NCBI RefSeq assembly: GCF_013167455.1
Contig: NZ_CP038328.1
DNA length: 64,000 bases
From: Escherichia coli O157:H7
GTDB taxonomy: Bacteria; Pseudomonadota; Gammaproteobacteria; Enterobacterales; Enterobacteriaceae
Strand: one strand, 5' to 3'
This document shows, one piece after another, positions 42,663-43,398 of this stretch (the stretch's first letter is position 1; the number at the start of each line of letters is the position of its first letter). The notes beneath the pieces are model-generated. The model searched no databases. It was not told the DNA's origin and saw nothing but the letters and a program-made list of their open reading frames with translations. Position numbers and translations under genes: made by a program.

Positions 42663-43220
42663 TTATCCTTCGATAAAAGCCATCCCTGTGAACGTTCGTC
42701 GCGGGTTGCCACGTTCAATCTGGTGATGGAACATTCGCCGCTGCGATTTCAGCACTGCGCTATTTTCCTGTTGCTGCTGCTCCAGCTTCCAGGCAATCAG
42801 CAATCGCGCCAGCCGTTTGTTAGCATGCTGGCTGCGTTCTGACTGAACCTTCACGCTAATCCCGGTTGCCAGATGCGTGGCGCGTACCGCCGAGTCGGTT
42901 TTATTGACATGTTGACCGCCCGGCCCCGACGGACGCAGCGTCTCATAACGGATTGCATCCGATTGTTCCTGCTCATCAGCGGTAAAACGCCCAATGCCCA
43001 GAAACCAGTTTTTGCGCCCATGATGAGGCCGATACGGACTCAGACAAATCCACTGAATAGTGCCGCACCAACTTTCGCTTAACGCCCATGCGTTGTCGCC
43101 ATCCAGAGAAATCAGCGCCGAACGCAGCGTGTCAGAGTAGCGGCCCGTTTCTGTTTCCAGCACCGTTACCGCGACGTCTTGTCGGGTAAAAACGACCAAC
43201 TGAGAAGAACGCTGCGCCAA
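42663..43220 (-). pseudogene. prfH: Peptide chain release factor homologue PrfH, 5'-truncated
   Basis: 185 aa ORF with GGQ motif (..[18 protein letters not shown]..); N-terminal region replaced relative to intact PrfH as I recall it; fused region with the upstream rtcB-like remnant. Confidence 0.7.
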
Positions 43221-43398
43221 TCGGGTAGCCGCGTCCGGGGTGTAAATCTGGCATCCCCACTACGCGCTGCATGTTGGGTAAATTTGCCGTGGTGTGTAAT
43301 TGTTGGATCGCTAAACTCTCGATCCACAGGTCATCAGATGCGATGGTAAATACCGCATCGGATAAGGGACGAATATATTTGCCCATGTACCATTCCAT
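43132..43398 (-). pseudogene. ykfJ: RtcB-like RNA ligase N-terminal fragment (ykfJ-type remnant)
   Basis: 88 aa ..[20 protein letters not shown].. resembles the RtcB N-terminal metal-binding segment; only a fragment remains. Confidence 0.6.

Follow-up and report, generated by a model that had tools for sequence, protein, structure and literature searches.

The minus-strand region 42663–43386 of the window (the whole stretch of DNA analysed, 64,000 nt from Escherichia coli O157:H7) was identified with high confidence as the remnant of a dead rtcB2–prfH operon, that is, as a pair of pseudogenes inactivated by deletion. The feature is real, the initial annotation, which had read it as a decayed RtcB–PrfH module, is supported, and the inactivation is already in print; nothing in our analysis changes current knowledge of the system. 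A single 1027-bp deletion between imperfect 8-bp direct repeats has fused rtcB2 at codon ~67 with prfH at codon ~31, in a different frame. Lost with it were the RtcB2 catalytic core, the overlap between the rtcB2 stop and the prfH start, and PrfH residues 1–30, which belong to the rRNA-recognition domain. With the core, the coupling and the N-terminus lost, neither product could do its job, and we therefore refer to the two genes as a pseudogene pair.

Positions 42400–43900 of the window are 100% identical to E. coli O157:H7-type genomes (strain FRIK1989 record). The gene order is pepD (41149–42606, plus strand), prfH', rtcB' and yafP-yafO-yafN-dinB, with everything from prfH' through dinB on the minus strand. 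The remnants of rtcB2 and prfH lie side by side in the same orientation on the minus strand, between pepD and yafP, and the RtcB2 remnant is located immediately upstream of prfH, as in the two-gene operon. The ORF list contains both minus-strand ORFs on which the initial annotation was based, one of 88 aa (43132–43398) and one of 185 aa (42663–43220). The fragment encoded by the first was said to run directly into the second; the remnants are indeed adjacent, but the ORFs share 89 nt, read in different frames, and there is no in-frame fusion. The region was divided into the following features:

42663–43186, minus strand: prfH remnant, prfH nt ~92–615 (residues ~31–204) plus the stop codon, defined with TIGR03072 and PDB 7sa4_8
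43132–43186, minus strand: out-of-frame tail of the 88-aa ORF, prfH DNA read in the rtcB2 frame for ~19–21 codons to the first stop
43180–43187, minus strand: deletion junction, where one hybrid copy ACCCGACA of the imperfect 8-bp direct repeat remains, with the breakpoint between 43187 and 43186
43187–43220, minus strand: spurious 5' extension of the 185-aa ORF, the TTG at 43220 and 11 wrong-frame rtcB2 codons
43187–43386, minus strand: rtcB2 remnant (ykfJ in K-12), the first 200 nt or ~67 of 379 codons, defined with NF007153 and by alignment to the intact genes of O104:H4 (L002) and BH100 (L003)

The 88-aa ORF had been described as an RtcB-like N-terminal fragment. Its match to the RtcB N-terminus held, but the residues derived from RtcB2 number ~67–69 rather than 88. 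In the NF007153 profile, aa 5–73 of the ORF aligned to model positions 1–69 of 379, and the Pfam RtcB model (PF01139) was covered at positions 1–33 of 426 only. The scores remained below those required for a full-length RtcB2 with all three models (NF007153, 106.9 bits against a cut-off of 407; TIGR03073, 100 against 271.8; PF01139, 23 against 27). RtcB2 proper starts at the ATG at 43386, and the ATG at 43398 adds four spurious codons to the ORF. Past aa 73, the tail has no RtcB homology: 1027 is not divisible by 3, so that the rtcB2 frame continues into prfH DNA out of frame and reaches a stop at 43132. The RtcB2 stub is cut just before the GNDIGCGM motif, the intact protein continuing after the breakpoint with ...FYPALVGNDIGCGM... 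In RtcB structures, the catalytic residues are the metal-binding Cys of the DIGCG motif, the His ligands and the guanylylated His. None of these residues is present in the stub, everything past the breakpoint having been deleted, and the loss amounts to ~312 of 379 residues, including the catalytic core.

The 185-aa ORF matched the TIGR03072 release_prfH profile with 271.3 bits, above the cut-off of 166.65, over model positions 31–200 of 200 only, and it aligned to residues 30–204 of the solved 204-aa E. coli PrfH (7sa4_8) with four substitutions. As initially claimed, the ORF keeps the GGQ motif (ORF aa 101–103, window 42912–42920) and lacks its expected N-terminus. The rRNA-recognition domain of PrfH comprises residues 2–98 and 180–204, and the GGQ domain residues 108–161 (Tian et al. 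2022, PMC9304027). The GGQ domain is kept in the window, and residues 1–30 are deleted, so that a PrfH of full length (~200–204 aa) with a complete rRNA-recognition domain is not encoded. Homology to PrfH begins at aa 11–13 of the ORF, the first 12 codons of which are out-of-frame rtcB2 DNA; the 185-aa "PrfH" ORF as listed is an artefact of a fortuitous TTG within this sequence. The PrfH start codon and its coupling to rtcB2 are gone, the 4-nt overlap of the intact loci falling inside the deleted 1027 bp.

A full-length, independently expressed PrfH of 185 aa would have spoken against a decayed module. The ORF falls short in length, with homology from residue 30/31 and a TTG extension, and lacks a promoter-like site upstream, the promoter scan having found no sigma-70-like promoter in 42560–43760. 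The remnant is presumably untranslated in O157:H7. A literature search on ykfJ yielded no useful information on expression. Three terminator-like matches were obtained in 42560–43760, all within coding sequence and in a number near chance expectation, and these were set aside. An Rfam scan of the whole window gave no match at the rtcB2–prfH remnant, and elsewhere a tRNA and naRNA4 only. A further element was read directly from the sequence:

42617–42650, no strand assigned: GC-rich palindrome (GCTGCCGGATGGCG...CGCCTTCCGGCAG) that separates the stop codons of the convergent genes pepD and prfH

This palindrome, which is absent from the output of the terminator scan, is probably a REP-like element or a bidirectional terminator hairpin.

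Intact rtcB2 and prfH measure 1140 and 615 nt, respectively, and overlap by 4 nt (O104:H4, L002; B2 strain BH100, L003). BLAST and base-by-base comparison with these two loci revealed a single 1027-bp gap in the window, the left flank being rtcB2 through window position 43187 and the right flank prfH from 43186. The identical 1027 bp is absent relative to four further, more divergent intact alleles (L016–L019). Alignment with intact rtcB–prfH loci, the check named beforehand, thus gave a clean 1027-bp gap against all six intact alleles, and the internal deletion postulated to join the two genes proved to be this one event. It spans from about rtcB2 nt 201 to prfH nt 91; rtcB2 loses its 3' ~82%, prfH its first ~91 nt, and the ATGA in which the stop of one overlaps the start of the other is gone as well. 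The profile scores, far above chance, and the clean gap against the intact loci show that the resemblance to RtcB and PrfH is not fortuitous. An imperfect 8-bp repeat pair (ACCCGGCA and ACCCGACA) lies at the deletion ends. Junction sequences from 11 deleted and 6 intact alleles were compared in an alignment with the 1027 bp masked, and the intact alleles carry one repeat copy, (T/C)CCGGCA, in rtcB2 and the other, ACCCGACA, in prfH, at a distance of exactly 1027 bp in every one. The most likely origin of the deletion is replication slippage or illegitimate recombination.

A deletion of ~1000 nt was reported by Baranov et al. 2006 (PMC1586002) in K-12 MG1655, W3110, O157:H7 Sakai and EDL933, together with the argument that the truncated product would miss a central beta-strand of domain 2. 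The K-12 prfH'/ykfJ' pair (b0236/b0235) has the same position between pepD and yafP as the pair in the window, the same 1027-bp end points and the same remnants. However, the O157 allele has an A where K-12 has a G at the position distinguishing the repeat copies, and the O157 remnant differs from that of K-12 at 23 of 519 positions, including P79L, S116P and S138T. Tian et al. 2022 (PMC9304027) considered both K-12 genes presumably inactive, and showed for the intact proteins that PrfH first frees the peptide on ribosomes cleaved at the decoding centre and RtcB2 afterwards religates the 16S rRNA. For the intact operon, the literature describes entry of PrfH into the A site of ribosomes with 16S rRNA cut by colicin E3 or a CdiA toxin. 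Maviza et al. 2022 (PMC9223846) found protection against colicin E3 with the intact operon of ATCC 25922, whereas the truncated operon of BW25113 gives none and its knockouts have no phenotype.

The locus in the window is orthologous to the intact RtcB2–PrfH locus (ATCC 25922; PDB 7sa4). PrfH residues 31–204 differ at 4 positions and the GGQ domain is complete, but ~312 of 379 RtcB2 residues, PrfH residues 1–30 and the start/stop coupling are missing. The RF-1 (GGQ) domain is shared with RF1, RF2 and ArfB (PF00472, 84.7 bits), and weaker matches were obtained with the prfB, prfA and ArfB models. These scores were far under the curated cut-offs (91 against 370, 78 against 400 and 32 against 100) and, unlike these factors, the 185-aa ORF lacks domain 1, the codon-recognition motifs and an ArfB-type C-terminal tail. 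O157:H7, like K-12, is without the only known repair system for ribosomes cut in the decoding centre and, extrapolating from the K-12 data, is predicted to be as sensitive as K-12 to colicin E3-type ribotoxins.

The annotation of the locus differs between genomes. In the FRIK1989 record, PGAP presents the 185-aa ORF as an intact prfH (WP_050557030.1) and the RtcB remnant as a pseudogene "missing C-terminus". The ORF is likewise labelled as intact prfH in L37 and BY63, whereas the K-12, Santai, H8 and OkiPb01695 copies of the same structure are given as partial pseudogenes. The same inconsistency in RefSeq/PGAP labels was seen between alleles entered as a CDS with a WP_ accession (L001, 1764–2321; L011, 1281–1838; L013, 1281–1838) and alleles entered as a partial pseudogene (L004, 1278–1784; L010, 1317–1838; L015, 1332–1838). 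Some RtcB pseudogene entries mention drug-inducible mexXY expression, apparently carried over from a Pseudomonas homologue. The label "intact prfH" is an artefact of the TTG extension. The 185-aa ORF being called intact in many RefSeq genomes, comparisons of gene content based on labels would overcount functional prfH.

The deleted allele is old and common (about half of the complete E. coli genomes), and it is decaying further. A second deletion, of 169 bp and frameshifting, removes prfH nt 281–449 (residues 94–150) at a 4-bp GCAT microhomology, and takes out linker 1 and most of the GGQ domain, including GGQ itself. Alleles with this deletion were observed in L005 (1206–1615), L006 (1206–1615), L007 (1263–1615) and L014 (1317–1669). 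Two queries for its junction matched 391 and 314 E. coli genomes; about a quarter of the carriers of the 1027-bp deletion also have the 169-bp deletion, if the two matched sets do not overlap.

The tables of variable sites revealed mosaic haplotypes, with patches of deleted alleles matching divergent intact alleles. In the deleted allele of Santai, the left flank resembles that of K-12, and the right flank is very divergent from ~13 bp off the junction. The deleted allele of OkiPb01695 (L012), which also has a 3-bp insertion in the prfH remnant (alignment columns 347–349), contains a patch with the very sequence found in ETEC4077 (L019), whose intact allele is divergent, and this is an example of recombination between deleted and intact alleles. 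The simplest reading of the 17 alleles is that most of the diversity of the remnant evolved in intact genes and was then moved beside the junction by recombination. A chimeric query, run against ~2700 intact genomes, retrieved no intact allele near the prfH haplotype of O157. The best match had 97.8% identity, so the collection does not contain the direct intact ancestor of the O157 allele.

Among variants in the prfH remnant, 19 synonymous and 16 nonsynonymous changes are private to deleted alleles, as opposed to 23 and 8 private to intact alleles and 26 and 2 shared by both (11 deleted and 6 intact alleles; Fisher p = 0.004 for the deleted-only variants against the other two classes pooled). 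This nonsynonymous excess is consistent with relaxed constraint after the deletion, and should be taken as indicative rather than conclusive. The changes private to deleted alleles include the radical substitutions C71Y, P79L/R, W91L, G139W and S116P, the last of which adjoins GGQ and is present in the window. Pairwise pN/pS of the prfH remnant is low (~0.1), also between two deleted alleles, with a synonymous divergence of up to ~0.22. By itself, this ratio would point to purifying selection on the remnant. Selection on the remnant was dropped as the main reading of this ratio in view of the mosaic haplotypes, the private nonsynonymous excess and the frequency of the second deletion.

The 185-aa ORF could instead be a genuine short PrfH, translated from the TTG at 43220 or from the GTG at 43163 (the start used in the old 166-aa annotation of K-12) and maintained by selection as a GGQ peptidyl-tRNA hydrolase. 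The ORF is unbroken, its GGQ motif is intact and its TIGR03072 score exceeds the curated cut-off; PGAP calls it an intact prfH in O157, L37 and BY63, and pairwise pN/pS among deleted alleles is ~0.1. However, residues 1–30 of the rRNA-recognition domain are gone, and with them a central beta-strand according to Baranov et al. (PMC1586002), the sequence of the first 12 codons is unrelated and the scan gave no promoter-like site, and the partner for translational coupling has been destroyed. Furthermore, GGQ itself is lost in about a quarter of deletion carriers through the frameshifting 169-bp deletion, the variants private to deleted alleles show a nonsynonymous excess, and the K-12 knockouts have no colicin E3 phenotype (PMC9223846). 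We therefore consider a functional short PrfH very improbable. The 89-nt overlap between ORFs in different frames also raises the question of an RtcB'–PrfH fusion produced by programmed ribosomal frameshifting, and there is a precedent in the paralogue prfB, which uses a programmed +1 frameshift. Nevertheless, the overlap was made by a deletion that the intact alleles lack, no slippery or prfB-like shift site was seen in it, and the product would consist of a 67-residue ligase stub followed by a truncated domain. Such a fusion appears exceedingly improbable, and the reading as a deletion-inactivated pseudogene pair is retained.

A 120-nt query across the junction, at a coverage of 80% or more, detected the deletion junction in 2690 of 5426 complete E. 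coli genomes, and the deleted 1027-bp segment was found in 2675 of the 5426. The rtcB2–prfH locus is thus a ~50:50 polymorphism and no oddity of laboratory strains. Carriers of the deletion include K-12, B, O157:H7 and strains in which dinB adjoins yafP (no yafNO), as in O104:H4. Three junction variants were distinguished with 42-nt junction queries for which a 28-nt seed spanning both variable sites was required: ACCCGA/CA in ~1134 genomes (O157 and many others), ACCCGG/CA in ~1216 genomes (K-12 and others) and ATCCGG/CA in 337 genomes. The three groups together account for the 2690 carriers. The G/A site at the junction coincides exactly with the one base by which the two 8-bp copies of the repeat differ in intact alleles, and it is equally compatible with two independent slippage events resolved on either side of the mismatch and with one event followed by a transition. 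The population counts and the junction variants are a small addition to a known system.

We give no credence to the deletion being an assembly or sequencing artefact of the window, since the identical junction occurs in 2690 independently assembled complete genomes and in the literature (PMC1586002). A recurrent origin is a different matter, and would make the locus a hotspot of repeated loss by slippage; it concerns the origin of the deletion only and leaves the pseudogene status unchanged. The existence of three junction variants, two of which differ at exactly the repeat-distinguishing position, points in this direction, as do the T/C variant 4 nt from the crossover, which mirrors a polymorphism of the intact alleles, and the occurrence of deleted alleles on very different flanking haplotypes. 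However, an 8-bp repeat with a mismatch and its copies 1 kb apart is a weak substrate for slippage, and one event with a single later G/A or C/T transition would account for the variants just as well. The mosaic structure evident in the flanking haplotypes is what recombination predicts, the most divergent of the deleted alleles (Santai) has the K-12-like left flank, and the alleles examined number only 17. On balance, more than one origin is unlikely. It is also rather doubtful that the ~50:50 split reflects a polymorphism maintained by ribotoxin pressure (colicin E3 or CdiA) acting against the cost of the module, with the deletion having arisen at least twice by slippage. If this were true, repeated slippage would explain why the two major junction variants have G or A at the repeat-distinguishing base.

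The region upstream of the operon contains an intergenic repeat:

43400–43526, no strand assigned: ERIC/IRU intergenic repeat (127 bp) that stops 13 nt short of the rtcB2 start codon on its upstream side, recognised by an ERIC1R match and inverted arms

The sequence of the ERIC1R primer, used to identify the repeat at 43400–43526 as ERIC, has an exact match at 43464–43485, with none expected by chance. The repeat is an imperfect palindrome with nested inverted arms (43400–43424/43502–43526 and 43448–43461/43466–43479). It is absent in BH100 (L003) and 72 bp shorter in O104:H4 (L002) and WCHEC96200 (L007); this variation between strains indicates that the upstream region of the operon is itself polymorphic. 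The repeat lies outside the deletion and is context only.

Other variation was observed around the operon. The yafN-yafO toxin–antitoxin pair is located between dinB and yafP in the window (43705–45968); K-12 and B2 strains have it too. O104:H4 and several other strains, in which dinB overlaps yafP directly, lack the pair, which is thus a presence/absence polymorphism (regions without yafN-yafO: L002, 3760–5264; L005, 1–744; L006, 1–742; L010, 1–796; L012, 1–869; L013, 1–869). Some strains with intact rtcB2–prfH carry, between pepD and prfH, an extra gene for a "metal-dependent hydrolase", and the final codons of prfH are different there (L016, 2512–2825; L019, 2512–2825).

Further decayed neighbours lie in 46039–50824, according to the FRIK1989 annotation, which was assumed to be colinear with the window. 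They comprise lafU and an flhA fragment (46039–48508), a remnant of the lateral-flagella cluster; rayT with an internal stop (48653–49150); and a frameshifted yafQ toxin gene beside an intact dinJ (50548–50824). The naRNA4 detected by Rfam is at 49249–49326. On the other side, positions 1–34770 of the window contain a complete-looking tailed prophage with tail, capsid, terminase, lysis and regulator genes and an integrase (33562–34680). This prophage adjoins a tRNA-Thr (34695–34770) beside proA and carries an iss (serum survival) gene at 20085–20378.
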